Shown: positions 6,511-40,874 of the stretch, one piece after another | Layout of the letters: each line of letters begins with the position of its first letter | How positions within the stretch are numbered: position 1 is the first letter of the stretch | DNA from: Octopus vulgaris | Lineage: Eukaryota | Direction: 5' to 3' | Assembly: GCA_951406725.2 (NCBI GenBank) | Contig: OX597815.1 | Coordinates: forward strand, 193,378,001-193,442,000 | DNA: 64,000 bases | Program-made: the position numbers and the translations under genes | Notes under the pieces: generated by a model | The model's input: only the letters and a program-made list of their open reading frames with translations | Database searches by the model: none | Told to the model about the DNA's origin: nothing

Positions 6511-6860
6511 ATAACACAAAACCTGCTGAGCGGAACGATGAACCACCTGGATACTATGAGTACCATGGATACACAACTGATTTCTATAATGCTTCAACAT
6601 CTGGACATTCCGAACAACCTATGTATCTACCATCAACAGCATATACACCACACTCCGAATATCCACCACCACCAGCATATACACCACAACCCGAAAATCC
6701 ACCACTATCCGAATATCCACCACAGTGTGGATGTCCACTACAAACGGGTTATCCACCACTACCTGGATACCCGTCAGAACCATCACCTGTCCTACAACAA
6801 CCATCACAACAACAACAACAGCAACAACCACAAAGACAACATCAGCAAGTGTCTGATACT
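6511..6860 (+). CDS. Dispanin paralogue 1, Pro/Tyr/Gln-rich N-terminal exon
   Basis: ttttttacag acceptor and GTAAGC donor. Open frame (D)NTKPAERNDEPPGYY...EYPPPPAY...QQQVSDT; phase 1 in, phase 0 out. Confidence 0.85.
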
Positions 6861-7559: not shown

Positions 7560-8010
7560 GGAGATAACAGAAGAGATCTTATGTATTTCAAGGGCATTGA
7601 GTAGCCTTGAGTGTGGGACACTATCAAACGCTTTCCGTAGTTATCCATCTATATTCAGGTTCTCCTTGTTGTTTCGGCAATTCTCTACAAAATGAATTCC
7701 TCTTATAACCTTTTGTAGCGTGTGGAAGGATAGATTTCCGTTCCAAGAAATTGTATATTCTTTAGGCTAGTATGTATGTGATGATCTTGTAGGTGGTCTT
7801 CAGATATGTAATTGGGCTGCAGTTCTTTGGATTTTTCCTCTTGCAATTTCATCGAAAACTCATATATCCGCCCATAAAAATTCCAGCCCTCTATTGCTAC
7901 ATTCCACTTTGGAGGTCTATTGACATGGTTGGTCCTTCTCTGTGACGTCCTGATACCTAATTCAGCGGTAACAATTTTAGCAGTGAAATAAATACGGTTA
8001 TTAAACATTG
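7560..8010 (-). mobile_element. Degenerate Penelope-like endonuclease remnant (duplicate near 27560-28010)
   Basis: EDHLQDHHIHTSLKNIQFLGTE...YKRL resembles the C-terminal part of PLE GIY-YIG domains; weak match. Confidence 0.35.
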
Positions 8011-8411
8011 TTTGGGCATTTCCTTTATTACTAAAAACCTGTCTAAGAGCAACACTCTATATCATGATCATGTTGTTATTTTTAATGTTGCTTCTAAACA
8101 TTAGCATGTTCACATAGACGAATGGAGAGTTGCATGTGAAGGTAATTATTCAATTTACGTACTTACTGTGTAATTAGTGCGTTGTACCAAGTTACCTTGT
8201 GTTGAGATATCATGCATTTAAAAAAGAAACTACACTTTATGTAACGAAAATCCTTCCGAATTTTTCATTGCTGTATCACGATGTTTTCCTTCCATTGCAC
8301 CGTCGTTACTGGATTAAGTTTTCTTTGTGGAGTTCGTCCAAGTTGTGCTCCTCATCAACATAAACATCACTAGATAATTATATTAACTTTTTTGATATGT
8401 TCTCTTTCCAG

Positions 8412-8519
8412 ACAGAAGACCAACTAAAAGAATCTGTAATTAACATTAGACGAACAATTATTGCTACTCTTTTCTGCTGTTTTCCATCAGGTATTGTTGC
8501 TCTTGTTAGTGCAGTTAAA
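8412..8519 (+). CDS. Dispanin paralogue 1, CD225 domain exon A (TEDQLKESVINIRRTIIATLFCCFPSGIVALVSAVK)
   Basis: ttccag acceptor, AAA|GTAAGT donor. LFCCFPxGIVAL motif typical of CD225. The phase-0 intron after ...VK matches the IFITM-type intron position. Confidence 0.9.
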
Positions 8520-8879
8520 GTAAGTAAATACAAACATTTCTCGCAAGAACTTCTGTTTGTTCGCATACCTTTTATCCAACCGTTGATGTATGTGAAGAAA
8601 TATGCTTACCAACCACATGGTTCCGGCTTCGGTTCTACTGCACCTGGAGTAAGTGATCTGTACAATAGACAGGTGCTGATCAAAGCCATGTGAACGGATT
8701 AAGCAGATGAAAACTGAAAGAAACCCATCATGCACACAAATACATGCACACATATATATATATATATATACATAAAAACATGTGAGAGTGTGTATGTGTA
8801 TATGTGTGAGTGTATCGAAAAGAAAGAGAGTATCTATGTTTGTGTTTATCAAATACAACCATAGATAAGCGATGTTGAG

Positions 8880-9560
8880 ACGACCACCAAAAATGGCCTT
8901 TGAAAAGTCTACGGCCAAATCACCTAAACAAATCAAGATACAGTGTTTCAAAACAGAAAAAATGTCTATAATGAAAATTTATATAATGTTCTTTTCAAGA
9001 AGTTACTGTACATTGTTGATATTTCGTGTGGCTACTCCTCACCTTGAATGATTGCTTCAATGCACTTAGGAAGAGATGAGTACAAATCCTTCACCAGCTT
9101 CACAGGCATTTAATGTCATTCTCTGTGGCTGATCTCTCACAACACTTCAAGATTAAGTGGATTCTTCTGACAAACTCTTCTCTTTAGTTCTGTACACATT
9201 TGTTCGATTACATTTAAGTCAGGTATCTGAGCTGGCCAATCTTTCAATATGGTAACACCTTCATCAGAAGACTCTGTTATGTTGCAAACAATCTGTAGCA
9301 TTGCGCTACGTCTTGCTGAAAATCCTCAGTATGCGATGTGACCTGCTTTTGTGCCATGGGTGGTCTTGCTGAAAGTGTTTGTTCTCTCAGAACAATTAGG
9401 TAACGGCAAACAGTCAAGCCCTCTTATCATTATAAGACATACACTCTCTGCATCAACAAATTTTAACAACAAGAATTTGGTATTTTCGTGCTAGGCTCAC
9501 CATCAAATCATATCCAGAACTAATTTATGATAGTCTAGACATTTTGTCAAACTGTGTTTG
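8880..9560 (-). mobile_element. Degenerate Tc1-like transposase remnant (duplicate near 29170-29860)
   Basis: Minus-strand fragments FQQDVAQ and WPAQIPDLNVIEQM resemble Tc1 FQQDNAP and WPxQSPDLNPIE. Confidence 0.55.
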
Positions 9561-10469
9561 GATTACGTTATCCAATGTGTTATTATAAAATATTGTTTTT
9601 TAAAAGAGAATGCTGTGATTTGAGGAATTTAGCTGCTCTTTCAAGCAGTTTTAGTTGTCTCCTTGTGGTTGTGTCATAGACTGTTTGAGGTTCCCTCATG
9701 GAGTTGATACGCATTTAGTTGATGGGGATTATAGAGGAGAAGCACAATTAAAGGTCCTAAACAAGATCAAATGAACATCATGATTATAATAGTTGTGAAA
9801 ATGGTTCTTATATAAAGGCTTACCTCTAATGCGTGTTTGCTCCATTATGTCTAACAATAACCGTTTCAAGTATTCCAAGCACAGCAGTCTTATTTTAACT
9901 CATCTTTAATATCTGTCAACTCACCATATCATTGTAAATAAGGTTTCTATTAATCCAGTCTACATAAAATAGCTTAAACCCCAAAGTAGCAATTGGCTAA
10001 GAAACAGCATAGCATTGATCAGCGTTGATAAAACATCTGCTTTTATAAGAGCAATGGTTATGAAACTGACGAAATATCACTTCACCACCCCCGGAACAAC
10101 ACACACATTACAAAAATATTGGTAGAATTTGTGGTCACACCAGCTCCCCTCCATTCACTCCTTTAGTAAAAAGAAATTCTATTGTTCATCCATATAATTC
10201 CATATAATTGCTACGACGCATAAAATATTTAGCTTTATTTTGTCCGTTTTTATGTTCTGAGTTCATATTACTTCTGCTCTACTTTGCCTTTCATCCTTTA
10301 GGGATACATAAAATAAGTAATTGTTTGAGTACTGGGATCGATGTAATTCACTTATTCATTCCTCCGAAATTGCTGGCCATGTGACAAAATAAAAATCAAC
10401 ATATTTGTTGTTGTTCAGTTTTATTGACGTGTTTAAATATAAACTAATTCTTGTCTTTCTGTCTTCTAG

Positions 10470-10613
10470 GCATACAAAATGGCCAAAAATGGAAATTTAG
10501 AAGGTGCAACCCGCGCAAACAATACTGCAAAACAATTCATCAAACTATCACATTTTGCTGCTTTTCTTGCGTATATTTTGTATGTGATTTTAATCCTCAT
10601 TAACTTTACTTAA
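10470..10613 (+). CDS. Dispanin paralogue 1, CD225 exon B with C-terminal TM helix (AYKMAKNGNLEGATRANNTAKQFIKLSHFAAFLAYILYVILILINFT*)
   Basis: tcttctag acceptor. G-N-L-E-G-A...A-K motif of the CD225 loop, hydrophobic C-terminus, TAA at 10611-10613. Confidence 0.9.
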   Translation, partial: AYKMAKNGNLEGATRANNTAKQFIKLSHFAAFLAYILYVILILINFT

Positions 10614-11149
10614 AAAGTCACTAGATAATGATATATTCTGACCGGTGAAATCTAACACTTCAGCCTGATAGCATGAACCCATAAAGCAGTAAAATTATGA
10701 GAGTATACAGATATTCCTGCACCTCTTGTAGCATTCCTTCGCTCCAATTTAATCACCCACGAAATCAACGGGTAATGTTGTTGCATTTTGGCTTTAATTC
10801 AATCTTCTTGATCAGGAATGGTCAAACTTTAAAATCGTTTTTAAAATATATTTGTGAAACAAAGCAAATTTTTTAACTCTTTCATAGTTTCAAAGTATTT
10901 CCTTAAAATAAGTTATTTGAAACTTTAATATTTATATAAGTGCTTAAGCTGTGTAACATAAATTAAACACTACATACACAAAGAGTAAACAGTTGTACTC
11001 GTATACTGACAAATATCGCTATACATGTCAACACAAAAGATTAGATAATGGTAGAGAGATAAGGCTAAAAGTGAAAACTACATTCAAATATTGACAACGA
11101 GTGTAGTGGAATATTTCTTGTAGCTTTCATTTATAACTATTTGGGTTAA

Positions 11150-11385
11150 TATTTTTCTTTATTGCACACAAGGGGCTAAACATAGAGAGGACAAAGAAGG
11201 ACAGACAAAGGGATCAAGTCGATTACATCGACCCCAGTGCGAAACTGGTACTTTATTTATCGAACCCGAAAGGATTAAAGGCAAAGTCGACCTCGGCGGA
11301 ATTTAAACTCAGAATGTAACGGCAGACGAAACACTGCTAAGCATTTCGCCCGGCGCGCTAACGTTTCTGCCAGCTCACCGCTTTG
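11150..11385 (-). mobile_element. tRNA-derived SINE family B (Nin-domain-like); recombinant of the two SINEs at 31420 and 32555
   Basis: Contains a variant of the family core gcctttcatcctttcggggtcgataaa. Its left flank matches 31400 and its right flank matches 32790. Confidence 0.75.
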
Positions 11386-12070
11386 TACGTTATGAAATAT
11401 AGCCGAAAGAATTGATTCGGAACAGGACTGGGAGATTTATTAGACGAATCTAGAACAGCTTGTAAAAAGATCTTCACTTATTACAGCTCACAAACAAGGC
11501 AGACCTTCACGTCACGCCACACACAAGATGGATGAAAAAAGTTTTCCTTAAGAAAATACGTATTTAAATAATTTTTAATGTCATCAATAGTGAAAGTGCA
11601 ACCGGTCGACAAACACAATAAATGATATATTAAAAAACAACTTTGATCTCTTTACATATTTTAATACACGATTACATCACTGTACATATATCTACCCAAT
11701 AAATTAGTTATCGAAATTTGTGTATATATATATAATCCCAACACCCTACCGAGAGCTGAACAGTTATCTCCCTTCCCCACTTTCATAACGATAACGAATT
11801 ACCACCCCTTCCTCTTCTACTTGTTGAATCATTCACTCATAAATTTCCCACACAACATGTACCAAAAAATTTCTTCTTAAGAAAATACTATCTAAATAAA
11901 TCTTAATGTCATGAATAGTGAAAGCGAAACCGGTCGACAAGCACAATAATTGATATATTAAAAATTATATTAAAACTATGTAATGTGTGAGCATTTTTCT
12001 TCTTTAATTTCATATATATATTACAATTCACCACTTGGGGATAATCAAAACCCCTCCTTTTCTGTTACTG

Positions 12071-12162
<92 letters not shown>

Positions 12163-14329
12163 TTCTGTGTAGAAGACGAGTTTTCTTTAAAGCTCCTCGT
12201 AGAATGACATAAATCAGCCTGCTTCCTGAATGCAATATTTTCCCACGAGAGTTCCGGACCCTAGTCGAACGATCTCCAGCTTCTGCCTGGTTTTTGGAGG
12301 CAAATAATTAGATTGATTTGCATCCATACCTATTATCGGATTTTGTTAGTGCCCCGTAAGTTAAATATGTGCATGGGAAAAATATGGATTGAGGGTGATG
12401 TACTAGCAACCCTCTCCCCTCACTGATTTACAAAGTAAGCAAGAACACAAATAACTACGCAGAGGCAGCCATGGTTGAAACTAGAACAATATCAAAAATC
12501 ATTATTAAAAGGGAAAAGAAGCATGGTGATTCCTTACCCAACTGACCTTATCGTATCGCCCATCACTTGTTATGCGCCCATAAATTTGTTTGATTGTTGA
12601 GCTCTGGGTGGCTGTATGAAAACGAGTTTATAACTGGGATCCGGAACTCTCGTGTGAAAAAGAAATCTCTTCCCGTACACTTGATAAGTAAATTCTATCC
12701 CGAGTGGTATTACTAGATATTCGCTACGGTGCATATGTAGGAGATATAAGGGTAAACACAAGTTTATATCATAGTTTCTTGGCGTATTTCACCTTTTCAC
12801 CATTAGGATTGTTTGAAACCCAACGATTAGATGGTCGACACTTATCTGCAGCTTAATATTCTCGGATCATTTGTTAGTTTTGGGCATCTAAAATGCATTC
12901 TGAACACCAATTGCTGGGCTCCAAACGTGCATAACGTTGGAACACGCGTAAGAACGATTATATAAACTTGCATTTGTCCTTAGGCCTTACTCTCCTATTT
13001 GTACACACGCACGCGCATACAAACAGTCAAACAATTATTTCTTAAATACAATATGGAAACAACGTGTTTGTACGCTAATTTGTAAATAATATACATGCGT
13101 ACGCTTACAAAAACAAGAAAAAAACATTTAACGTTATTTTGCTGCTCATTACTAATTCATGAGTAAAGTTTATTTCGTTCGACAAAGATAGAAACGTAGC
13201 AAAAAGGTGGAGAGAGAGAGAGAGTTTTTAACTGCTTATATGGATACTGCAATGAGTAATACACACAGTGATGCATACAAATACACATATACACACTCAC
13301 ATAAATACATCGTTGCGAATTTAGTCCCAGTGCATGACACCTTCGAGTCGGCTCGACCAAAGCTTTGTGAGTAAATTTGGTAGACAGAAACTGAAAGAAG
13401 CCCGGCGTATATATATATAGAGCAATCTCGAGTATAACCAGCCGAAATTGCAAAGATAATCTGGAACTCGGCTGAGGATCCATCTTTGTTTTCCTTGTAT
13501 CATCTGTCTGGATATTTTGTTGTCCCTTTTTTGTTTCACATAATCGTATGAATGTTTTGCGTTCTTGTCCCAGTTTTGTATATATATATATATATAAGAA
13601 AATTTCCGAGAGGGAAGTTTTGGAAAATTTACACTATCTGACATTTTCTCTCGTTACTTTTAGGAAGACGGGTATCTTATTATGAAAATTTATTCAAATC
13701 CATTTCAAACGACATAGATTACAATTATAAAGAAATTTGTGGGGAAAAGTTTTTAGGGGATTTTCCCCATTTTTTTTTTTAAACCACAGCCTTCGAAATG
13801 GTGGAGTTTGAGCGTTTTCGATAAAATCAAAAAAATTGTTATATTTTCAGACGGAAAAGTCAGTGATTTAATGGTGATTTGGCTGTTATTTCTAGCACAT
13901 GCAAACAAAAACTCTCCTCGTTTCTGTATCACACTCGCATGTATTGATGTTTTTCAATATTTTTTCTCCATAAATAAAAATTATATGCTACAAAAACGAA
14001 AATTTGAGAAATTATGAAGTTTTTACAAACCCACTTTCTACCTCCGATTAAAATATTGAAGAGCCTGAGAAGGTCGTTGCTGGTATTTATCCACAATGAT
14101 TTGAAAAATTTACGGAGAAGTATTCGCATGTCAAGTGACTTGATCTGAGAATGTGTGCTGAAACAAAACAATTACAACGTGGAGGATGTTTGTAAGCCTT
14201 TCAAAAACACGCAAAAATAATTAGTTTCACTTTAACATTAAAATTTCATCTGTGTCAAAACATTTTCGTCGCTTTGAAACCGAGTCCGGTCCACTAAAAA
14301 AACTTCACAAAAGTGATACAAAGTTTTTT

Positions 14330-16760
14330 CAGTGAACATCAATCACACACTCACACACGCATTCATTGCCTTTTATTTGCATTACACCCAAACCGAACAG
14401 CACCTCTCCGCTTCTTCCGATCTAGAGCATCATTTTCCCAATCACTTTTGTTCATATCTAGTTTCTTCAGGTTTTCCTTCACACAGTCTTTATAACTTTT
14501 CTTCGGCTTATGTTGTGGTCACTTACCAGAGTTGAGCTCACCATAAAAAAGATGCTTTAGCAAACGCTCGAATTTCATTCTAATAACATGTCCAGTTCAT
14601 CTCATTTTCAGCCAAGGTAACATGCTGTTCAATTGAGCTGCTACATACCATGCGCAAAACCTCTGTATGTGGTATGGAACATTGCTTGACTCCTAAGATA
14701 CGTCTGAGGCACTTTTGATGAAATCTCTCCTGCATTTGTATGTGATGCTTGTAAGTGGTCCATGTCTCACTTGAATAAAGAAGTGCAGACAATACACACA
14801 CTATATAGACCTTGAATTTTGTCTGCAGGGAAATACCTCTATCCGCCCATACTCTCTTTTAGAGCTTTCCAAATGCAACACCTCCCTTCCCTATTCGATA
14901 GTATATCTCTGCATCAAGACTACCATCTCTTGACAGTGTACCTCTTAGGTAAACAAAGGAATCAACGACTTCTAACATTGTTCCATTCACAAAAATATTT
15001 GGTTCAGAATATGTTTGTTCTGGCACGGGAGTAAACATTACTTTGGTTTTCCCCAAATGTACATAAGCAGTGGAAAATCTCTCCATTAAATGTTGCATAT
15101 CCCCCTCTGAGTGTGCCAACAAATCAGCATCATCAACATAAAGATATTTTCTAACAAGTATTTTGAAAGTATTTGCAGTTAAACCGGTTCGAATTAAAAA
15201 TACGACCAGACATCTGAAATCTGATTCTGATTCCCCTGTTGCAACCCTTCAAAGTATACCAAAGTAATGCAGCAAAATAAATAGAGAAAAGCGTAGGGGC
15301 CGGAATATCTCCCTGTTTGACACCGTTGTCCACCGAAAATTCATGAGATGGACCACCATTAAAGACTACCTGATCTTTCGTGTTTCTGTGTAGTTTTATA
15401 AAAATGCTCACAAAATGTGTTGGACAACCAAGTCTACACAAAACAATCCACAGTGTCTTCCTGTTTACCGTGTCAAATGCCTTAGTTAAATCTATGAAGA
15501 CCTTGTATAGTGGAATTTGTTCCACTAAGCATTTCTCTTGAACCTGCCTCACAGAAAATATCATGTCCATGGTTCCTCGTTCGGGTCTGAAACCACGTTG
15601 TTCTTCAGGAATCACATGCGGACACACATTCTTAACAAGATGATCTAACATGATCCTTCGAAGTATCTTCCCAGTATGTACCAGAAGAATTGTCACTCTA
15701 GAATTACCACACACTACTTTGGGGCCCTTACCTTGTATACAGAGATTAGAATGACTTTTAACCATTCTTGTGGGACTGAAATCTTGTAAGTCAGCTTTCC
15801 GAGTTAATACAAAGTAACTCATATGACCTTGCTGTGATCTTGAGTGAATCCAGGTAACTTTATGTTTCATCTTATGATGAAAGAAAGTATTCCCAACAAT
15901 CAGCCCTAGCTCAGAGCACATTTTCAGCAGATGCAACCCATTGTTGTTCACCTTCTCAATTCCATAACGCCCATGTACATTCCAAGCACTATAGCTTCTA
16001 TCAACACGTGCATTAAAGTCACCAAGCACAACCAGCTTCTCATTCAAAGGGACACACAGAATACTTCTTCTAAGCTCCTCATAAAACACATGGATACTTT
16101 CGTCACCAGCTGAAAGTGTAAGAGCATAAATAGAGAAAACAGTTACAAAACGTCCACAAGAAAGAGGGATCTAGAGTTTCATTATGCGTGTATTTATGCT
16201 TTGTGGTTGTTCTGTGTCCTTTAGCCAATCACTTCCAATTGCAAACCAAACATCACTTTCCCTTTTCTCTCTCTCTCTCTCCCCGGCTTCCCAACACAGA
16301 ATAACGTGAAACCTGTCGCTCTTTCGACAAGATGATCTTCATCTGAACATCTTGTTTCCGAAAGAGCTGCAATATCAAGATTAAGACGCCTTAGCTCCTT
16401 AGTTACTAGAGCTGTTCTTCTCTCAGGTCTTTCTGCTCGATCTAAAAGAGTTCTTACATTCCAACAGACCAGGTTAAGAGAAACCTTATTCCTCGCATAC
16501 TTGCAATAATTATTTTCATCAATTCTTTGTTCATTCCTGCTAAACTGATTCACTGTTAGCCACAGTAAACTTACCAGCAGAGAGAAGTCAGACAATTTTT
16601 AGTGCACCTTTTCTAGCACTTTACCAATTTATCCAGGTAAGCAGTATTCTCCTTAAAAGGGCTGCTCAGACGCAGGATTCTTCACCGAAAACTTTTTTTG
16701 CCCATAAAAATATTAGCGATGTTAAGATAAGAACCCTGTCGGCTTATGTGCAGATTTCTA
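14330..16760 (-). mobile_element. Degenerate RTE-clade LINE (AP endonuclease plus RT), internally deleted and frameshifted
   Basis: WNVRTLLD...DIAALSETR, LGDFNARV, EEQRGFRPERGTMDMIF, FIDLTKAFDTV, GVKQGDIPAPTLF, YVDD, RLLKHLFY.ELNSGK. Confidence 0.9.
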
Positions 16761-16897
16761 CGTTTGTAACTGTATACTTCCAACTGGTCAAATCTGAAAA
16801 CGTGGCATATATGAATAAATAAATACATTCGCAATTAAAACTTTAATAAAGTAAAATAAAATAAAAAGATATAAATATATACAAATATATAAATATA

Positions 16898-17750
16898 CTA
16901 GCAGAAATACTCGGTGCTGCCCGGATTAAGGAAAACAATGGATTTTTAAAACGCCATCTAGATTATGCAGGCCTCAGCTGCTAGTAACTGATATACCAAC
17001 TTTCTACATTAACAACTCTCCAACCCATGCAAACATGGAACATAGACGTTAAGTGAAATGTTAAAAGTAAGTTTTCAACTTATATATGTATATAAAGTAA
17101 ATACACGTAATTCAAGAACACATTTTGTGTAGCTTAATTCGTAAACGGAAAACAGGTACAGATTATAAAAAATGAAAGGCCGAATTTTGGTGATTCATTT
17201 GACAGAGGAAGTAGAAAGCCAATCCGATGATAAATCTAATCTTGAATCTTGAAATTGTAGTGTAATCTGCATAATGAACTGCTGGATTATAACTGAGAGC
17301 TGCTTCATAAAAGTTACTTCTCTCAGCTGTTGCAACTGCTCTTCGTTCTGCAGTGGAGATCCTATTCCTTTTCAGCAGTGCATATCTCTGTTCATCGCTT
17401 TGATATGCTGTGTCCTTTGTAATGGACAGTCTCTTCGTTTCTTGGTATGCTTCCTTTTATGCAGATGTCTCTCTTTCCTTGGACAGGGACATTCTTTTGG
17501 CTGACCTTGACATTTTCATTCTAGGGATAGTTATATACGTATACAGAAATACACGGTTGCAGAAGACAGTAAACAGTGAAAATATTTGGGTAACGGAAAT
17601 TATATTTCTTAATACGACGGGTAAAGCAAGAAATTTTAAAGGAAAATAAAGCATTCTACGGGTTGAAGCGAAATTTGTCAGTCAATCAGGGCCAGTATCG
17701 AAGGAACTAGATAGACAGATATGGAGAGATAGAGATGGATAGAGATAGAT
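16898..17750 (-). mobile_element. Helitron-like non-autonomous element (duplicate near 38626-39470)
   Basis: CTAG terminus with an adjacent GC hairpin (ctcggtgctgcccgg), as at 1112; the other end runs into (GATA)n. Confidence 0.45.
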
Positions 17751-17756
17751 AGATAA

Positions 17757-17812
<56 letters not shown>

Positions 17813-17837
17813 GTAGGTAGGTAGGTAGGTAGGTATG

Positions 17838-17900
<63 letters not shown>

Positions 17901-17917
17901 GTAGGTAGGTAGGTATG

Positions 17918-17993
<76 letters not shown>
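17710..17993 (+). repeat. (GATA)n/(GGTA)n microsatellite
   Basis: Read directly from the sequence. Confidence 0.95.
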
Positions 17994-17994
<1 letters not shown>

Positions 17995-18283
17995 TTTAAC
18001 GTCACTGATGCTAGTAAACCGGTAGTAAATATATTTTAAAGTTTTCAATGACGTGAATATAATTTAAAAAGTAATTTGTTTTCATCAGCAATGGATGTCA
18101 GGGTGATAATAAATTTCTGAAAGTTACTTCACAAAGATTTACTTCTGTTCTCCAAGTAACCAAGGAACAGGAGTTTTCTGCCACGGGAGGCCTATTACTT
18201 ATTATGCGAAACATCTTAAGAGTCTAAAATAACCCATAGAACGTAAGTAATATATGTGCTCTCAAATTTAAAATCTTGAAATG

Positions 18284-18365
18284 CTGTGCTGAGGAGCAAA
18301 TTGATCGAATGAAAGTGTGATCTTTGCATTTTTCATATCGATCTAATTCCGAAACGCGTCCACAG
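18284..18365 (+). ncRNA. Minimal type I hammerhead ribozyme, intact core
   Basis: ctgtg-CTGAGGA-[55-nt stem-loop II]-GAAACGCGTC-cacag. Palindromic stem III (ACGCGT); predicted cleavage after C18360. Confidence 0.75.
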
Positions 18366-18822
18366 GTAATCAAATACCGAGTGAATTTCGTTGTTTTTTT
18401 CTCTCTGCCTACGTGAATTGTTTTGAGTATATGTTGTCCGGGAGTTTCTCCTTATAGTAGGAGAAATAGCTAAGTACTTTGGCTGCTATTTCTAAAGTTC
18501 GGTATGTGGTGAAGCAAATTTTTTGGCTGAACACTAATTATAATTATACTAATAATTATGAAATATATATATATATACAAATATACACACACAAACACAC
18601 ACACATATGTACACATAATGCTGGATGGCCGTTGACTAAACATGAGTTCTTCTGCCCTACAACAGGTCATATTTTCGTCCTGCAGGGTGTCCAACAATTA
18701 CCGTCCTCCCCAAGTAAGGTTGGTGGAGTTTCCAGTTTAGTCGCCGAGGACCCGACCATGTGAAATATTGTACTGGGTTACATGTTACCAGCAGCGCTCA
18801 AGAGCGATTTGACCTAACATAA

Positions 18823-19034
18823 ATACATACATACGTACGTACGTACGTACACACATACATACATACATACATACATACATACATACATACATACATACAT
18901 ACATACATACATACATACATACATACATACATACAGACATACATACATACATACATACGCACATACATACATACATACATACATACATACATACATACAT
19001 ACATACATACATACATACATACATACATACATAC
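18823..19034 (+). repeat. (TACA)n microsatellite
   Basis: Read directly from the sequence. Confidence 0.95.
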
Positions 19035-19863
19035 TTACTTGTGCCTTCTGAAGGACATGAACACCGATTTCCAAAAGTTCTTTTTAAGGGAAGATTCAGG
19101 GCCTTTATGAAGATATACATTTTGTTTGGCTATTAAATACTTGCTATCATGTTTTGATCATATGTAAGTTCCGTTTAACACCATTTGAAGCCTACGTAAA
19201 TATATCGCCGTTGGGGAGGTCTCAATAAATAGATTACTTTTTTCTTTTAGGCGTTCACTACATTAAACTTCATGCGATATAATTTTTTGTATCTCAAATC
19301 TGTACGATGTGGTTTAGTGCAAATTTCCCTGGAATTTGTTCACAAGTTGAGCAACTACGCAGCGTTAGTCTTCATACTAAAAATAAACTGCATCGAACGC
19401 TATTGTCAATGTAGGTCTTGTTAAATATAATGCTCTTCTTTCTTCCATGACTGATAATTCTATCATAAAATAGAGACAACAGTTCGAAATTCTTTATGGG
19501 CCCAAGAGGAATGCAATTCCCAAGAGTAGCAACGTGTCTTCAACCTTAAAGTTACCTAACAAAAAGATAAGGATTGCAACTTTTGAATATACAACGGTTT
19601 ACGTATAAGCTATTAACGAATTGCTATAAGCTGCAAGGAAAGTATTTCATAAACAAAACTGTTGCACTCCACAAAATAAATTTCCCACGTTAGTGACATA
19701 ACCTGTTACACTGCATATATAGTTATGCCATCACTGCCCTCAATTCGCACAGAGAGGAATAAAAGTACCACTGCGAGTAAGGCGAGTAGGACCCCAACAT
19801 TTGCGGATTTTACCATTTCAGTCTCCTATCGCTAGCTGCACGAAACAGTGGTGGTTCACAACC

Positions 19864-19873
19864 ATGGAAGCCT
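19864..19873 (+). CDS. Dispanin paralogue 2, coding exon 1 (ATG GAA GCC T)
   Basis: accATGG Kozak-like context, GTAAGT donor, homologous to 191-200. Confidence 0.75.
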
Positions 19874-20335
19874 GTAAGTATTATGTTAATGAATTTTCAT
19901 AAGTATATATTAATGAAGTTTCCAAAGTATGTGTTAATGAGTTTTGTAAGATCTCACTATATGTCCGCTTCTATAAAGTTTTTAAAGCACACACCCAGAT
20001 TGTCTTGATAAAGTGTGAAGAAAATTCCACATTTCCGTTCTGTCAGCTCACGAATGTTAATTAAAGACTTGTATGAACATCTTTGCAACATACACTGGAG
20101 TAATTGAACCGAATTTCAAGAAATGTTCATGAGTTCTGATAAAAATATTTTAAAAACCATACGTGCATGTGAGTATGTATATATGTAATCAAACGTTTCT
20201 CATACTATGTATAGCCGTACATGCTCGCTTGTGTGGAGATGAACGGAGAAAAATTCATTACGTAAAAAATAGAACTTTGTAACTGTTACTTAAAACTTCA
20301 GCTACTTTATATACATACTTGCACATACACATAAA

Positions 20336-20369
<34 letters not shown>

Positions 20370-20371
<2 letters not shown>

Positions 20372-20815
20372 TAGATAAATATTTTTTGTTTATTAGCCAC
20401 ACAGAACTGAACACATAGGGGACAAATTACAAAGTAGAGCTTTTCTTTTGGGGGAGAAAAAAGGGGGTGTAGGTTTCCGATCAAAAGGGAACGTAAAAAA
20501 AAACGTTCAATAGTAATCGTGTATCACAGAAATGTCATGATGTAAAGTGTATAGGGGGAAACAGATAAACTTTATCCGTGGAAAGAAAAGCCTACGGAAA
20601 AGACCACGGGAACCTCGATCAATAATGTCACATGTTAACACATTCATTTGCAAGTAAGTAACTCTCTCTTTTCCGGATTCATAGGATTATGCTCAAGGTG
20701 GCTTCGTCATTCATATGTGCCGTTCTTGCTACATTCACCCATGTTTTTTGTTTTTGAAACATTCGCTACTCTCTCTTGCCTCTCTACTCTCACTTTCCCT
20801 TTCAAGTGATACTTA
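20370..20815 (-). mobile_element. 3' fragment of a Tx1/L1-like LINE
   Basis: Homologous to 42558-43287 (ORF2 C-terminus and 3'UTR ending tgtgtggctaataaa). Confidence 0.55.
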
Positions 20816-21381
20816 ATACCTAAACATCTACTACATCAGATTCTATTATCTTTTAACGACCGATTTATTCCCTCCACTACATCCTCCCTCCCACTGCTAC
20901 CCAACCTGAAGATCTAAGATTTGCTTTCCTTCAGCCCTTATACATTCGTCTTTGAACATACATCCCCAAACCCTTCCTAACATGAGTACACCCCACTATA
21001 CTGATTAGTATATATTTAGTACGCAGCATCTATCTGCTACTCCTCTTCATTTTGCTATAGTGAAATACACTCATTTTTGAACCAGTCTTTCTCCAAGATT
21101 GGAACTGGTAACACCTGATTCTCTTCGCTCTGGATTATAAACAAGTATCTTTCACAATTTTGATTCTAGTAATGGTCATTACTGATTTTTCTCATTTGTA
21201 CACAGATCTAACTAAGGAATACGTATTTTAATTGGATTTTAATTGGATTTCTCCTCCTTTTCTCGACAAAATTAACTACAAAATCATTGATGAGTAATGC
21301 TCTTCCACCTGTATATCTGTTTAAACCCCTCATTTTCTGATGTAATTTGTCTTTGTAAAAGTCTTACCACACATTTTGCCT

Positions 21382-21464
<83 letters not shown>

Positions 21465-21807
21465 GGATTCAGTTGAATTAAGTGCATACAGGAAAGTACC
21501 AAGCCACCAAGCCAGTTCGGTATAGTACGCGCAGTTCGAAATTACATGAAATTAAAAAGTAAATAAGTAAAAGGAATGACCGTTTCAAGTGGCTCCATTT
21601 AATCGATGATGAAAACTTTACATCAGTTTGAAATAATCCGCTCTCTCCAGACGCAGACGATCATATAGATTTCAAACATAAAGCATAAGCCATTAATTAT
21701 TAGGAAAAATTCCACAAGAACCTAAGACAATTACAATTTTCCTTTTGCTACTCTCTGCCACAAGAATAGCAAAGGGAAGCTTTGTCACTTATTTGCTTTA
21801 TGTACAA

Positions 21808-21883
<76 letters not shown>

Positions 21884-22064
21884 ATGTGTATGTATGTAGG
21901 TACAGCACCAGTAACAGTTAAGCTTCGTGCAATGGCCATACTCGATTTCGAGGGGGAAGCCATAATGTATGTATGTATATATATGTATATACAAACACAG
22001 ACACAGACACACACACAAACACGCACGCACACACACACACACAAACACACATATATATATATAT

Positions 22065-22101
<37 letters not shown>

Positions 22102-22484
22102 TATAATTACAAATTGGGATAGGGGTTGAGAGTGTAACCCACCATGGGATAACATATATCCAATATACTGCCAGTAAAGCACCCAACAAAGTTAATACAT
22201 AAATGTTAAGAATTGCGATGCAATTAATTCATTTATTGTATTATATGGGGAAAGGTAAAATGTTTTACCACAAATTAATAATACAAAATAAGAAAATGGA
22301 GAAATACACCTTAATCAATAATCAACTACCAGATAGTACCCAATCACATAATTTATTAAACCACTACATAAGAACATCAAGGTCAAACATAATAGTATAG
22401 AACAAAAAACAATGCACATCAATGAGTAATATGATACAATAAGTGCAATATGTATAAGTGAATATAAATAAATATAAATATAAA

Positions 22485-22617
22485 TATAAACTACAGCTGT
22501 TTCAGTCATGCAGATATGGGTATCTCATTATGTTCATATTAGCCAGGTGTGATAAGTTAATATGTGGTTATAAATGAGACACTTACAGAAATATCCCAAG
22601 GCCTCTTCAGAGATTAT
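22485..22617 (-). ncRNA. Hammerhead motif with intact core, very long stem II and degenerate stem I
   Basis: Minus strand: CTGAAGA...gtgtctcatt...aatgagatac...GAAACAGCTGTA; palindromic ACAGCTGT. Confidence 0.55.
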
Positions 22618-22959
22618 AAAGTACAAACTAAACTAAATATGAATATCAGAGGAGGTACACCCATACAAGAGTGGGCACATACCCATAATATATAATATAC
22701 ACATACATAAGAGTGCATATACCCATACTTCTATATATATATATACATATACATAATAATATACAACATTATACATACATATGTTCTATATTCAAGTTTA
22801 CAGTTGGTCAAACCAATATATTAGAATATTACAATATACAAACATACACATATCTATATTCAAATGAACATATACAGATTCAAGAGTTCATTATATTAAG
22901 TTACAAAGTGCCATTAATATTACCATCATTATTATTACCATTGCCACTATTGCTACTAA

Positions 22960-23023
<64 letters not shown>

Positions 23024-23284
23024 AATAATACCAGCAAAACAATATATGCATCACGCGGTTCACAGTACATATTATGTGGGAAAAAATCAGGTGGAATACA
23101 TCAATATCATAGTATATTGGAATAGCAATATAATAGCAACAACAACAACAACAATAATACAATACAATGCATTTTTCGTAAACATTCATAGTGCTGAGAA
23201 ACCTTCCAGATAAACACAATTTCGAAAGTGTTCCCACTCAAACCTCCGCCAAAAAACATTCACAGGCATGGGAAAACTGCACCA

Positions 23285-23398
<114 letters not shown>

Positions 23399-23653
23399 GC
23401 ACACAGACATATACATATATACACTCGAATGCAATGCATCCGCAAACATTGGTATACACATACATACACACTCATATATATATTCATATATATAAAAAAC
23501 ATATACACACATATCCACCCATGAATATATATATATACATATAAGTATACACATGAACATATGTAGACATATCCACATACACGATCGAAATTACAGATAT
23601 ACATGTCTGCACACAGCTTTGCATATACATACATTCATATATATATGTATATA

Positions 23654-23780
<127 letters not shown>

Positions 23781-23984
23781 TGGTACATACACATATATGT
23801 GTGTGTGCGTCCCGGATGTCTTCTATATGTGGAGGAATTTTGTCCAAGGTGACCAAACACAAAGTTTCCTAGCCATATATTAATGCCTATATATATATGT
23901 ATGTGTGTGTATGTATCTATTTCTATATAAATGTAATGTTATGTAGATAAATATGTGTGTCTATGTAAATATACTTGTGTGCAA

Positions 23985-24795
23985 GATATAATTCTTATAC
24001 GATAAGGAAATGTCTATTTGTCAGAAAAAGTAAAAGAAAATTACTTCATCTAATCTAAAAGGTTCTGAAAGAAACTGAAAAATGCAGCAGAAGATTATTT
24101 TTTTTCTCAAACGAGAAAACCTTCGGCCGGGATCAAAACGTCACAGGAAGAAATGACAGATGGTTAAATGCAGGCCCTTCTGAAGTGTTATATATACAAG
24201 ATTTCGTGCAACTGTCATAGTTTTAGGGGTTGTTAGCAATGAAGGACTTGAGATGCCTCCTTACTTCTTTCCACAAGGCCTTAGAGTTAACTATGCGGGA
24301 TACGTTTAGATCATGGGACAAATTGTTAAGCCCTGGATAGACAGTGAATGCAATAGAAGGCCATATGTATTTCAGTAAGACTCTGCACTATCACACATGG
24401 CTCTAGTAACAAAGGATCGCCGATAATGTTCATGATCACAACTCCTAGCGTTTGGGAGCCTTATATCCCAGATCTCAATCCATTGGACAATCACATGTGG
24501 AAGGTTGCTGAGAGAGAGGTCAATGAACACACACATAACACCACAAAAACCTTTGAAAGCTGACATAGTCAGAGTAATGTCCAGAATGAACCAGGACCAC
24601 TTGATTCAAGCATGTAGAAGATTTAGATCTCATATAGAAGCAGTTGTTGAAGCTGAAGGCAGCTTTATTGTACAACATTATAGAAAAAAAGTTTAGTTTT
24701 ATCCTCGTAGTATTTTTTGACAAATATATTTATTATTTGCTATATATTTGCTTCTTTTATAAACATAAATCTGTCCTCAAGTATCTTACGCACAC

Positions 24796-24800
<5 letters not shown>
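23985..24800 (+). mobile_element. Degenerate Tc1/mariner (maT/DD37D-like) transposon
   Basis: [62 protein letters not shown], with stops. Confidence 0.75.
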
Positions 24801-24866
<66 letters not shown>

Positions 24867-24890
24867 GTGTGTATGTATGTATTATGTATG

Positions 24891-24924
<34 letters not shown>

Positions 24925-24951
24925 TGTATGTATGTATGTATGTATGTATTA

Positions 24952-25017
<66 letters not shown>

Positions 25018-26486
25018 GTAACAGAAAGGAAGAATTTCGATTATCCCCATGTGGTGAGTTGTAATATATATAAGAAATTAAAAAAGGAAAATACGCACAC
25101 TTTACATAGTTTTAATATAAGTTTTAATATATCGACCGGTTCCGCTATCGCTATTCATGATATTATGTTTTACTTACTTGAATATGTATTTTCTTAGATT
25201 TTGTCCATGTTGTGTATGATGATATTTACGAGTGATTCACTCGTAAATATCATCACGCAACTGGCTCTCTTATTTGATGTACTTTGTTTTAACAGCACTA
25301 ACAGTTATCAAGAAACCAATTGATCCAGGGATATCAATTTTCCCATTCTGCGGCTTTCTACCGAGATTATGTATTAATTTCTTTGCTATTCGCCCGCTTT
25401 TTGTTGTGCCTATAGCATTTCCAGTAAATGGTGGTTTATTATCGGATTTTTCGACACTGACGGAAAATGTATAACTAATTCACTACAATTTTGTATTAAA
25501 TTAGGGGTTATAATACATTCTCGATTTTGCTACATAAAAAAAATCTAAATTTGTAATATTAAATTGTTGAAGTCTTAACTTATAGGCAAATATTTTAAAT
25601 TTACAGACACTATATACTATTTCTTTTCCGTTTATTAAACTGAAAAAGAAAAGATGATTGTCCCTTTCAATTTCAGCTATTATGTAAAAATATAAAAGGA
25701 CATGAATGACCATTGAAATCTTTAAACTCTATCTTCAACAGCAATATTTTAAGTTTGTTTACTTCTTGGTCTCGCTTAATGTATTTGCAAAGAAAGAAAA
25801 TATCTTGGTATCTGCATGAGAATTTGTGAACGACTGCAGAATTACTTAATTCGGAATGAAGACGATTTGTACATCTTTATATTGAAGATTTGCTGTTAAG
25901 GGAGGTCTACATATAGCAAGTTTTATTCGTCTAAATATATAACATGATCATATTTAGATAGCTGTGAATTATCATTATCAGCTACAGCATTTGTAAAATA
26001 GTTGGCTTTTAGCAAAATCCCCAATGAGAAATGTAAAGGTGGACAATTTACTCGTGTATTTTAATAGGTTTTACCTTTAAAATCTAATCTGACCTCATCT
26101 TGGAGCAATGAATTAAAAACTGAAAAAAATTACAAAGACAATAACTGCATTAACTCCAGCTTAGCATCTTTTCAGGCAGATTATCGTTATATATATCATA
26201 CCAGCAATGTGTTCTTGGTAATCAGTTAGAGGGAATTCTGTTTTCATCTTATATGTTTCAGCTATTAAAGAAAAGCAGAAGTGAAAACATATAAAAGTAT
26301 TTAACTATCCTGATGATTTCGTCAATGTGTTAGTGATGATATTAATTAATTTTTACAATTTTAAGCAAATTGTCATAAGAAAATTTACAGTCAGCAACCA
26401 GCATATAACATTTGTTGATTAATTAGATATATGAGGAATATACACTTTGAAATATCGCTTGTGGAATCTAATTTCTTTTTTTACAG

Positions 26487-26908
26487 ATAACACAAAACCT
26501 GCTGAGCGGAACGATGAACCACCAAGATACTATGATAACCATGGATACGCAACTGATTTCTATGATGCTTCGACATCTGGACATTCCGAACAACCTGGGT
26601 ATCCACCACTACCAGCATATACACCACGCTCCGAATATCCACCACCACCACCATATACACCACAACCCGAATATTCTCCACTATCCGAATATCCACCACA
26701 ACATGAATATCCACCACTATCCGAAAATCCACCACTATCCGAATATCCACCACTATCCGAATATCTACCACAGTCCGGATATCCACTACAAACGGGTTAT
26801 CCACCACTACCTGGATACCCGTCAGAACCATCACCTGTCCTACAACAACCATCACAACAACAACAACAGCAACAACCACAAAGACAACATCAGCAAGTGT
26901 CTGATACT
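26487..26908 (+). CDS. Dispanin paralogue 2, Pro/Tyr/Gln-rich exon
   Basis: Same splice sites as 6511-6860. 72 nt longer, equal to four extra 18-nt EYPPLS-type units; frame intact. Confidence 0.85.
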
Positions 26909-28415
26909 GTAAGCAAATATCTTTTCGTTTCATTTTACGTCTTTATTATTCTTCAAGCATTTATCCTGGACAGAGATCTTATCCGTAGCAAGTTTTAGTC
27001 ATCAAAAGGTGAATATTCTAGGAAATCCCCTTTAAGAGATTTTAGCCATTCATATCATTATATGGAGCAGAATAAATGATTTAGAACTATAATGGTAACA
27101 GTAGCAAACGGAGTACCTGGCTTGGAAGATATATACACACGAATATATGCATGTGTGCGTGTATGTGCATGTGTACACGTATGTACGCTTATATCTGTGT
27201 ATGTGTATGTGTGTGTCTCTGTGTGTGTATGTTTGCATGTGAGTGTGAATGCATGAAGGGCTGTCTCAAATATTCCATCAGCTAAATTCAACTCACAAAA
27301 TATTTGTCAACTCAAGACTATGGTACAGCCTAGCTTCCTCTTCTGCAAGTTATGGTGCAGCAGGATCAAACCTGGAGACGTCTTCAGGGAATTTCTTAAC
27401 TACAAAGTGATGTGTTCACATACAAACGTAACACCGTTTCTGGTGGTCGTCTCACATCTTTCCCTCTCGTTCAGAACACCTACTACAAAATATAATGATT
27501 ACTATGGTTTAGAAGGAAACGTGTATTCCGCCTGACCATGCTACCTTGTAAGAATCTGGAGACCACAGAAGAGATCTTATGTATTTCAAGGGCATTGAGT
27601 AGCCTTCAGTGTGAGACACTATCAAACGCCTTCCTTAGTTATCCATCTATGTTCAGGTTCTTCTACTTGTTCCGGCATTCTCTACTAAAGTTTTATTCAT
27701 GGATTCCTCTTATAACCTTTTGTAGCTTGTCGAAGTATAGATTTCTGTTCCAAGAAATTTTATATTCTTTCAGTTAGTATATATGTGATGATCTTGCAGG
27801 TGGTGTTGTGACATGTAATTCGTCGGGTATTCTTTGGATTTTTCCTCTTGCAATTTCATCGAAAACTCATATATCCGCCCATAAAAGTTCCATCACTCTA
27901 TTGCTACATTCTACTTAGGAGGTCTATTGACATGGTTGGTCCTTTTCTGTGACGTCCTGATACCTAATTGAGCAGTTACAACTTTAGCAGTGAAATAAAT
28001 ACGGTTATTAAACGTTGTTTGGGCATTTCCTTTATTACTAAAAACTTGTCTAAGAGCAACACTCTATATCATGATCATGTTATTTTTAATGTTGCTTCTA
28101 AACATTAGCATGTTCACAAAGATGAATGGAGAGTTGCATGTAAAGGTAATTATTCAATTTACGTACTTACTGTGTAATTAGTGCGTTGTACCAAGTTACC
28201 TTGTGTTGAGATATCACGCATTTAAAAAAGAAACTACACTTTATGTAACGAAAATCCTTCCGAATTTTTCATTGCTGTATCACGATGTTTTCCTTCCATT
28301 GCACCGTCGTTACTGGATTAAGTTTGCTTTGTGGAGTTCGTCCAAGTTGTGCTCCTCATCAACATAAACATCCCTAGATAATTATATTAACTTTTTTGAT
28401 ATGTTCTCTTTCCAG

Positions 28416-28523
28416 ACAGAAGACCAATTAAAAGAATCTGTAATTAACATTAGACGAACAATTATTGCTACCCTTTTCTGCTGTTTTGCATCAGGTATTG
28501 TTGCTCTTGCTAGTGCAGTTAAA
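28416..28523 (+). CDS. Dispanin paralogue 2, CD225 exon A (...IIATLFCCFASGIVALASAVK)
   Basis: 108-nt homologue of 8412-8519 with intact AG/GT sites. Confidence 0.9.
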
Positions 28524-30748
28524 GTAAGTAAATACGAACATTTCTTGCAAGAACTTCTATTTATTTGCATACCTTTTATCCAACCGTGGCTGTATGTCAA
28601 GAAATATGCTTACCAACCACATGGTTCCGGGATCGGTTCTACTGCACCTGGAGTAAGTGATCTGTACAATAGACAGGTGCTGATCAAAGCCATGTAAACG
28701 GATTAAGCAGATGAAAACTGAAAGAAAGCCATCATGCACACAAATACATACACACATGTATATATATATGCATAAAAACATGTGAGTGTGTGTATGTGTA
28801 TATGTGTGAGTGTGTGGAAAAGAAAGAGAGTATCTGTGTTTGTGTTTGTCAACTACAACCATAGATAACCGATGTTGGCGTGTTTACGTTCTGGTAGCGT
28901 TTCGGCAAAAGAAATGATAAAATAAGTACCGGCCATAAAAATAAAATATGTACAGGTGTCGATCCGTTCAACTAGAATTCTTTAAGGCGATGCTCCAGCA
29001 TAGCCACAGTCTAGTGACTGAAACAAATACTATGCCCTGTTAAAGCCTTCGGCCAATTAAAATTGTTGTAAATTACTATAAATTGCCAACCTATAAGGTG
29101 ATGTTTCGCATTGTGCTTATGGCAGATGAAACATTATATTTTGTAGTAGGGGTCTGAATGAGAGGGAAAGATGTGAGACGACCACCAAAAATGGCCAAGC
29201 AAAAGTCTACGGTCACTTCACCTAAACAAATCAAGATACAGTGTTTCAAAACAGAAAAATGTCTACAATGGAAATTTATTATATAATGTTCTTTTCAAGA
29301 AGTTACTGTTGATATTTCGTGTGGCTACTCCTCACCTTGAATGATTGCTTCAATGCACTTAGGAAGAGATGTGTACAAATCCTTCACCATCTTTACAGGC
29401 ATTTGATGTCATTCTCTGTGGCTGATCTCCCACAACACTTCAAGATTGAGTGGATTCTTCTGACGAACTCTTCTCTTCAGTTCTGTACACATTTGTTCGA
29501 TTATATTTAAGTCAGGTATCTGAGCTGGCCAATCTTTCAATATGGCAGTACTTTCATCAGTCAGACTCCGTTATGTTGCAAACAATCTGTGGCATTGCGC
29601 TCCGTCTTGCTGAAAAACTCAGTGTGCGATGTGACCTGCTTTTGTGCCATGGGTGGTCTTGATGAAAGTGTTTGTTCTCTCGGAACAATTAGGTAATGGC
29701 AAACAGTCAAGCCCTCTTATCATTATAAGACATACACTCTCTGCATCAACAAATTTTAACAACAAGAATTTGGTATTTTTGTGCTAGGCTCACAATCAAA
29801 TCATATCCAGAACTAATTTATGATAGTCTAGACATTTTGTCAAACTGTGTTTGGATTACGTTATCCAAAGTGATATTATACAATATTATTTTTTAAAAGA
29901 GATTGTTGTGATTTGAGGAATATGGCTACTATTTACTTCCTTGTGGTTGAGTCATAGACTGTTTGAGGTTCCCTCATGGAGTTGGTACGCATTTAGTTGA
30001 TGGAGATTATAGAGGGGAAGCATAATTAAAGGCCCTAAACAACACCAAACGAACATCATGATCATAATAGTTGTGAAAATGGTTCTTATATAAAGGCTCA
30101 CCTCTAATGCGTGTTTGCTCCATTATGTCTAACAATAACCGTTTCAAGTATTCCAAACACAGCAGTCTTATTTTAACTCATCTTTAATATCTGTCAACTC
30201 ACCATATCATTGTAAATAAGGTTTCTATTAATCCAGTCTACAGAAAATAGCTTTAACCCCTAAGTAGCAACTAGCTAAGAAACAGCATGGCATTTAACAG
30301 CGTTGATAAAACACCTGCTTTTATAAGAACAATGGTTATGAAACTGACGAAATATCACTTCGCCACCCCCGGAACCACACACACACTACAAAAATATTGG
30401 TAGTATTTGTGGTCATACCAGCTCCCCTCCATCCCCTCCTTTATTAAGAAGAAATTCTATTGTTCATCCATATAATTCCATATAATTGCTACGACGCATA
30501 AAATATTTAGCAGTATTTTGTCCGTTTTTACGTTCTGAGTTCAGATTCCTCCGGGTCCACTTTGTCTTTCATCCTTTAGGGATAAGTAAAATAAGTACTT
30601 GCTGAGTACTGGGATCGATGTAATTCACTTACACACTCCTCCGAAATTGCTGGCCTTGTGACAAAATTAGAAATCAACATATTTGTTGTTGTTCAGTTTT
30701 ATTGACGTGCTTTAAATATAAACTAATTCTTGTCTTTCTATCTTCTAG

Positions 30749-30898
30749 GCATACAAAATGGCCAAAAATGGAAATTTAGAAGGTGCAACCCGCGCAAACG
30801 ATACTGCAAAACGATTAATCAAAATATCATGTTATGGTGCTATTCTTCCGTATATTTTGTATGTGGCATTATTCCTCAATTACTTAAATATATTATGA
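30749..30898 (+). CDS. Dispanin paralogue 2, CD225 exon B/TM (AYKMAKNGNLEGATRANDTAKRLIKISCYGAILPYILYVALFLNYLNIL*)
   Basis: Homologue of 10470-10613 with intact acceptor; TGA at 30896-30898. Confidence 0.9.
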   Translation, partial: AYKMAKNGNLEGATRANDTAKRLIKISCYGAILPYILYVALFLNYLNIL

Positions 30899-40864: not shown

Positions 40865-40874
40865 ATGGAAGACA
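40865..40874 (+). CDS. Dispanin paralogue 3, coding exon 1 (ATG GAA GAC A)
   Basis: Homologous promoter/5'UTR block, ATG and GTAAGT donor in phase 1. Confidence 0.7.

Follow-up and report, generated by a model that had tools for sequence, protein, structure and literature searches.

Divergence of the last helix among tandem octopus CD225 genes: evidence leaning towards selection after duplication, followed by stasis

The 64,000-nucleotide stretch of the Octopus vulgaris genome analysed here, called the window in what follows (assembly GCA_951406725.2, contig OX597815.1, positions 193,378,001 to 193,442,000 of the forward strand), carries two neighbouring genes of the CD225, or dispanin, family. 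Gene A (191–10613) and gene B (19864–30898) have four coding exons each and lie in a roughly 20-kb tandem duplication. The model of gene A encodes 203 amino acids, the same length as its Octopus sinensis orthologue, protein P0001. Our subject is the last coding exon of the two genes, in which they differ in an unusual way. The features needed for the argument, in positions of the window, are the following.

191..200 (+): gene A, coding exon 1; ATG, 10 nt, with a GT donor, in frame with the later exons; N-terminus as in the P0001 match
6511..6860 (+): gene A, exon 2, encoding an N-terminus rich in Pro and Gln, in which two PPxY motifs occur (structure prediction, motif scan)
8412..8519 (+): gene A, exon 3, encoding the first CD225 half, Cys-Cys motif included
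9570..10469 (+): gene A, downstream part of intron 3; its last 470 nt are 5–7.5% diverged, about equally among A, B and the next two genes upstream (D1, D2), and were likely converted
10470..10613 (+): gene A, last coding exon, with the loop (GNLEG and A-X6-A), the long C-terminal helix and the stop
10521..10598 (+): divergent tract of gene A (codons 18–43), 14 of 78 nt unlike B
10632..10800 (+): block of the 3' untranslated region (UTR), nearly identical in A and B, close in D1 and D2, and alignable with many distant paralogues
19864..19873 (+): gene B, coding exon 1
26487..26908 (+): gene B, exon 2, rich in Pro and Gln and exceeding its counterpart in A by 24 codons
28416..28523 (+): gene B, exon 3, encoding the first CD225 half
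30749..30898 (+): gene B, last coding exon, with the divergent tract at 30800–30877
5296..18605 (+): tandem duplication unit around A, with its copy at about 23809–40195, in blocks 88–96% identical

Both last exons follow a TTCTAG acceptor, and their first 17 codons, GNLEG included, are identical (0 of 51 nt differ), just as a preliminary description of this DNA had noted by eye. Beyond that point, 11 of codons 18–43 differ, namely 18, 22, 23, 26, 28, 29, 30, 32, 34, 40 and 42; every one of them changes the amino acid, and the residue pairs (N/D, Q/R, F/L, L/I, H/C, F/Y, A/G, F/I, A/P, I/A and I/F) are exactly those listed in that description. The 14 nucleotide differences comprise 13 non-synonymous changes and a single synonymous one, the latter sitting in codon 40, which carries a triple change. 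The statement that no codon differs only synonymously is thus correct at the level of codons, with this one refinement at the level of nucleotides. The C-terminal tail and the stop differ as described (A stops after codon 47 and B after codon 49, with a 12-nt indel in the tail), and exon 3 has, also as described, 2 synonymous and 2 non-synonymous changes (8412–8519 versus 28416–28523). The near-identity of the 3' UTR holds as well (4 of 200 nt differ), but its use as a neutral contrast does not, as we argue below. Taken alone, the A/B comparison gives one-sided Fisher p values of 0.09 (codons 1–43) and 0.07 (codons 18–43), and codon-model likelihood-ratio tests (LRTs) give p values of 0.05 and 0.03, respectively.

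We rejected the reading of A and B as allelic haplotypes or an assembly artefact because one run of another organism contains both types; what is more, their introns differ by 5.5–6.2%, as against a heterozygosity of 1.22% given for O. vulgaris in its genome preprint (10.1101/2023.05.16.540928). The reading of B as a pseudogene was likewise rejected, its frame and splice sites being intact and its sequence preserved in other organisms. Low-depth contigs of A type (1 difference) and of B type (18 differences and the 12-nt gap) occur in X3, one of three runs guessed to be RNA, where the exon-3 contig ends at the donor site and the non-repeat intron has no cover. Elsewhere, run X4 showed no cover of exon 3 or of codons 4–32, and X17 contained one unspliced A-length contig. 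This suggests that both genes are transcribed, although none of the listed runs is recorded as RNA, and the silence of one copy, which the preliminary description had named as a possible objection, is not what the one RNA-like run indicates.

The two genes belong to a much larger array. A search of 1.06 Mb surrounding the window gave 24 full exon-3 matches and 23 last-exon matches. The array comprises about 24 CD225 genes at contig positions 192.98–193.81 Mb; both strands carry members, and four of the groupings are young pairs or triplets. The last exons of three exon-3 matches were not found in the search of this 1.06 Mb, and these three were left out of the family analyses, together with one gene with a premature stop and two orphan last-exon-like matches, leaving 20 genes with both exons intact. 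As for decay within the array, a premature stop and a frameshift interrupt the copy with its last exon at contig position 193551983 (minus strand), and another exon-3 match, at contig position 193726437, is degenerate.

It is the independent young pairs that carry the argument for selection. In the last exons of D1 and D2, 27 codons are identical, after which codons 28–43 hold 8 non-synonymous and 0 synonymous changes, while the pairs E1/E2 and F1/F2 stand at 1:0 and 2:0 (non-synonymous to synonymous). Pooled over all four young intact pairs, the last exon has a ratio of 24:1 (exact p 0.005); the three pairs other than the discovery pair give 11:0 (exact p 0.036), and codons 1–38 only, which are clear of the slippery tail, give 16:0 in the four pairs (exact p 0.008). 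Exon 3 of the same four pairs stands at 5:5, and its contrast with the last exon has a p value of 0.004. A pooled codon model puts omega, the ratio of non-synonymous to synonymous rates, at about 10 for the last exon of the four pairs, with a lower bound of 1.8 (p 0.002). Flanking divergence predicts 9.2 non-synonymous changes for A/B plus D1/D2, as opposed to the 21 observed (p 0.02, overdispersion allowed for). With more sequences, in site models of the 20 genes, omega in the last exon stays above 1: for the last exon alone, with site-rate variation allowed, the LRT is 7.7 (p 0.003, omega about 1.7), whereas for exon 3 alone it is 0. An omega above 1 among paralogues in the last exon thus has moderate support. 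A faster B lineage was not established (6:1 in the exon versus 29:30 in the intron, p 0.11).

The sequences flanking the exon behave differently from the exon itself. Whichever two of A, B, D1 and D2 are compared (six pairs), the final 470 nt of intron 3 differ by 5–7.5%. Comparing A/B with D1/D2, there are 28–35 differences in about 470 nt at the end of the intron, then 10, 19–23 and 25–26 differences in successive 50-nt bins of the exon (20%, about 40% and 50%), and then 1–2 differences per 65 nt in the UTR. Between the same genes, 4 of 18 to 7 of 23 of the codons that encode the same residue differ (22–30%; p 0.02 for A–D2 and 0.0005 for A–D1), and other intronic DNA of A and D2 is mostly 75–88% alike or not alignable. 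It is likely, from these alignments, that patches on both sides of the exon were homogenised in old paralogues while the exon stayed distinct, and that the resulting island of divergence was made by selection resisting gene conversion. A similar situation is known from exon 5 of the red and green opsins, where a peak of divergence under gene conversion has been reported (PMC3924837). Namely, there too, as in the Teshima-Innan model, the exon diverges more between paralogues than the flanking non-coding DNA does and is conserved between orthologues. However, the selected residues and the phenotype are known for the opsins, while conversion in the octopus is read from one assembly and short contigs.

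The same patches bear on how the UTR may be used. A-length contigs of organisms C and D, two of the other organisms whose runs were searched, carry three UTR letters that jointly match only the paralogue at contig position 193134780, and the UTR is therefore no species clock; a conversion tract from this paralogue would explain 9 of the 12 differences in organism D. In addition, the UTR segment 10627–10890 can be aligned at about 70–82% in more than 10 distant paralogues and is possibly a shared regulatory element, so that constraint may contribute to the near-identity. Be it through conversion or constraint, the near-identical UTR is not a neutral baseline, and intron 3, with 6.2% divergence between A and B, is a better one. 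Elsewhere in the two genes, a stretch of 140 nt spanning the exon 2 donor (6780–6920 versus 26829–26968) is identical in A and B and is possibly another recent conversion tract; at three residues near the end of exon 2, both A and B are unlike the O. sinensis model of A.

Between species, the helices hardly change. Compared with P0001, gene A shows 7 differences in its first 120 residues and 0 in the last 83, which are encoded by exons 3–4 (p 0.023). The exon of B was compared with 4 runs: across 161 nt it is unchanged in organisms B and C, and a single difference was seen in organism D, which contains both A and B types. The A-type contig of organism D retains all 14 A letters; close to the stop it has, by our reading, a single synonymous change. 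In the B type of organism D, the only change turns Gly into Val at codon 30, which is among the 11 codons that distinguish A from B. Of the roughly 159 putatively neutral sites, 3 changed between organisms, as did 1 of about 190 non-synonymous sites, and a continuing omega of 5 is rejected (p 0.01). A recurrent omega above 1 was not seen among orthologues, where each comparison holds 0–1 amino-acid changes, the taxa being few and close and the test accordingly weak. One run of organism A (X2) yielded only a D-type piece and no B exon, and protein searches for orthologues of B or D returned only P0001 and none among 16 candidates, which is weak evidence of absence; the queries did not include the Pro-rich N-terminus, and orthologues that can be recognised chiefly by it may have escaped. 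Altogether, these data point to a burst of change after duplication and then stasis.

What kind of proteins are these? One cluster gene equals a protein named O. vulgaris dispanin family in 73 of 73 residues, and P0001, which is identical to gene A across CD225, scores 49.8 bits against Pfam PF04505 (curated cut-off 27.1); for scanned single exons of A, B and C, CD225 was the only match, below the cut-off. The label of P0001, 'serine/threonine-protein kinase atg1-like', is a misleading annotation, since the protein has only a CD225 domain and no kinase domain. The first hydrophobic helix contains the Cys-Cys motif (142–143 in A, 166–167 in B), which is described as a dispanin feature (PMC3282796). 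The A-X6-A loop motif is also present, while the G-D motif reads G-N in A and B, its second position being N in 11 of 20 and D in 7 of 20 cluster genes. In 20 of 20 genes intron 3 splits the CD225 domain between the hydrophobic segments, and we count it, judging by position, as the putative conserved dispanin intron. The conserved glycine of the second helix is another matter: codon 31 encodes Gly in 18 of 20 cluster genes and Ala in A and B, with B having a Gly at codon 30. This loss is a subfamily change, and the other dispanin features weigh more. Regarding subfamilies, IFITM genes are described as having two exons without a separate N-terminal one (PMC3282796), a structure that the four coding exons of A and B do not share, whereas a Pro-rich N-terminus on an extra exon, as in PRRT1 of subfamily D, is present. 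Invertebrate dispanins have been reported to be hard to place in subfamilies (PMC3282796), and A and B would seem to be dispanins that resemble PRRT1 in build and depart from the gene structure of IFITMs.

The likeness to PRRT1 (SynDIG4) extends to the C-terminal position of CD225, the long last helix and the short tail, and the Octopus bimaculoides relatives of the cluster carry PRRT1-like names. That said, vertebrates are described as having one PRRT1 gene each (PMC3282796), unlike the about 24 tandem octopus copies with their fast-diverging helices. The immune IFITMs of vertebrates (subfamily A), for which duplication, conversion and positive selection have been reported (PMC3499546), are similar in their tandem expansion, gene conversion, positive selection after duplication, Cys-Cys motif and GxxxG-type loop motif. 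They are dissimilar in lacking the 120–145 Pro-rich residues and in that the helices of octopus A and B are static between species. Three O. bimaculoides proteins match cluster members at 61–93%, and the cluster is therefore older than the O. bimaculoides split, dated to about 34 million years ago, as compared with 2.5 million years for O. vulgaris and O. sinensis (10.1101/2023.05.16.540928). One O. bimaculoides protein, P0005, matches the paralogue at contig position 193706783 at 93% over 68 residues, and the differences lie mostly in the outer half of the last helix and in the tail. Literature searches, with subscription journals outside their coverage, found no paper on an octopus CD225 cluster. 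In the preprint on the O. vulgaris genome (10.1101/2023.05.16.540928), the word 'dispanin' is absent from the main text; supplementary gene-family tables may list the expansion. For the invertebrates surveyed, the family paper gives few, unclassified CD225 copies (PMC3282796), and 10 copies are given for Aplysia. It is the octopus CD225 cluster that would be new here, while the evolutionary pattern of duplication, conversion and positive selection is already known.

In a structure predicted by AlphaFold2 from a 100-sequence alignment, residues 1–102 of P0001 have no regular structure, a helix spans residues 144–162, and a confident helix spans residues 166–202. All 11 changed codons (residues 174–198) fall inside this last helix. 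The preliminary description had placed the divergence on the transmembrane helix, which holds for the seven changed codons in the hydrophobic part, but not for the four (codons 18–26) in the cytosolic run-up. One of the seven gives B an extra Cys (codon 28). A Foldseek search against the Protein Data Bank (PDB) gave no match at E 0.001; the best match among solved structures, and the only related one, is PRRT1 (9zks_M, E 0.007, residues 136–200 versus 228–292), with whose C-terminal helix the predicted last helix aligns. PPxY motifs in general bind NEDD4-type ligases, and the two in exon 2 of A may do so as well. In PRRT1, a long and tilted second transmembrane helix is described as lying in a groove between GluA1 M4 and CNIH2 (10.64898/2026.06.24.734257), and a GxxxG motif in the loop has been reported to drive oligomerisation of IFITM3 and PRRT2 (PMC7665892). 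Judging by its position, GNLEG, which lies within the 17 identical codons, is likely the equivalent of this GxxxG.

Putting these elements together, one can propose the following sequence of events. Selection would have favoured different versions of the C-terminal helix soon after the duplication of A and B, and each version would then have been kept, while gene conversion homogenised the flanking intron and UTR. The copies would share an oligomerising, palmitoylated core, with the helix retuned in each of them. If the last helix picks a membrane-protein client, as in PRRT1/SynDIG4, each copy might serve a receptor or channel of its own as escort or modulator, and the N-terminus with its PPxY motifs would steer trafficking. 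By analogy with PRRT1, we consider a client-choosing helix the most likely mechanism, provided that selection did act, and would give it about an even chance. Less likely, though possible as a second option, is that the proteins act against enveloped viruses as IFITMs do, their specificity having been fixed during bursts in the past.

How secure is the selection itself? We put the probability that the A/B helix differences arose by diversifying selection among paralogues after duplication, followed by stasis, at roughly 55%, and a number of points weigh against this reading. The A/B pattern in the last exon is by itself borderline and was picked by eye. In the 20 genes, the LRT of M8 versus M8a falls from 41 to 26 with segment rates and to 6.5 with site-level rate variation, and omega for codons 27–43 is 1.6–1.9 with a shared synonymous rate, but 1.0–1.2 if these codons are allowed a separate rate, which is then about doubled. 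In A/B and D1/D2, the Pro-rich exon is also rich in non-synonymous changes (21.5:4.5; ratio versus the last exon, p 0.2), even if in A/B it is about half as dense (18 changes in 348 nt versus 14 in 129 nt of the last exon). E1/E2 and F1/F2 together contribute only 3 changes, and the changed codons are not clustered on one face of the helix (Rayleigh p 0.28). The selection models were our own code; they used an ungapped alignment and, conversion notwithstanding, a single tree, whose branch lengths could vary only by a common scale. Finally, the stasis data comprise 4 changes in all and do not reject neutrality (p 0.25), and organisms B–D may be very close taxa. Several of these points, namely the family omega, the state of exon 2 and the neutrality between organisms, would be expected under relaxed constraint combined with uneven mutation and conversion, whereby the helix tolerates hydrophobic swaps, synonymous changes are few by chance, and conversion patches lower the divergence outside the helix. 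The D1/D2 changes are indeed mostly L/I/F swaps in T/A-rich sequence, and at least 14 mismatches per 78 nt are also found in 154 of 11,688 overlapping non-coding segments of the duplication (1.3%, in three places). However, neutral expectation is about 26–28% synonymous changes, as opposed to the 1 of 25 observed (p 0.005), and relaxation cannot push the rate above that of the intron (13 changes at 58 non-synonymous sites versus 6.2%). It also leaves unexplained why low divergence stops at the exon edges. In addition, with rate variation allowed, the site models retain a signal in the last exon alone. We regard this explanation as the main competitor, possible but on the whole rather improbable.

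The remaining two alternatives fare worse than post-duplication selection when confronted with the orthologues and with the rest of the genome. The preliminary description had suggested diversifying selection as in a host-pathogen arms race. The selection part finds backing in the independent pairs and the site models; the arms-race part does not. Membership in the same superfamily as IFITM, the Cys-Cys, GxxxG and PPxY motifs, the large tandem expansion and the history of the vertebrate immune IFITMs (PMC3499546) would all suit an IFITM-like restriction factor, as would the fact that the B-type change of organism D falls on a codon differing between A and B. Yet an arms race predicts that helix and tail turn over in each lineage. 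Exons 3–4 of A equal the O. sinensis model, the A and B helices have 0–1 amino-acid changes in three other organisms, and a continuing high omega is rejected, while the four-exon, long Pro-rich build is like that of PRRT1 and unlike that of the two-exon IFITMs; an ongoing arms race is therefore unlikely. Alternatively, the tract in A or B could have been imported by conversion from another, possibly lost, paralogue, in which case the differences would be old and unselected. Conversion is active in the cluster, as the UTR letters of organisms C and D indicate, but genome-wide DNA searches with each divergent tract found only A and B and no donor; the third-paralogue match that the preliminary description had raised as an objection did not turn up. 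Among the other paralogues, even the nearest has 28 mismatches in the 78 nt. What is more, an old tract should carry synonymous changes, of which there is only 1, and D1/D2 would require a second such event, all of which makes an imported tract very improbable.

Receptor trafficking, vesicle fusion and the entry of viruses are all processes that CD225 proteins control. A more far-reaching reading, which we consider doubtful, is that the 24-gene array encodes PRRT1-like auxiliary subunits in which the last helix is a selected specificity code protected from conversion. If so, each copy would grip a different member of an expanded receptor or channel family or, if IFITM-like, act on a different viral fusion pathway. 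More generally, the octopus array offers natural variants, only 8–11 residues apart in the segment that binds partners in PRRT1, which could reveal what sets CD225 specificity and whether the expansion served the nervous system or immunity.

The rest of the window contains most of a third, more distant paralogue, gene C, the last exon of which lies about 5 kb past the window end.

40865..40874 (+): gene C, coding exon 1
55758..56212 (+): gene C, exon 2, with repeats rich in Pro
63222..63332 (+): gene C, exon 3 (CD225)

Two intronic arrays, at 57373–58166 (29 copies) and 58404–58607 (8 copies), with SINE-like sequence (short interspersed element) between them, have the same unit as the 27-bp Pro-rich repeats of gene C exon 2 (55874–56121). 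These arrays might be spliced in part, and frames shift inside them. Comparison of the window with itself shows that positions 1–446 also match 19675–20113. There are two long, near-perfect inverted repeats, at 4304–4577 (99-nt arms, 99%) and 52090–52454 (170-nt arms, 100%). Decayed frames resembling the reverse transcriptase of long interspersed elements, identified by eye, lie at 15151–16170, 36464–37484 and 50366–51293; the first of these is common to both duplication units, recurring as the second, and positions 15000–17835 differ by 2.1% between the units.

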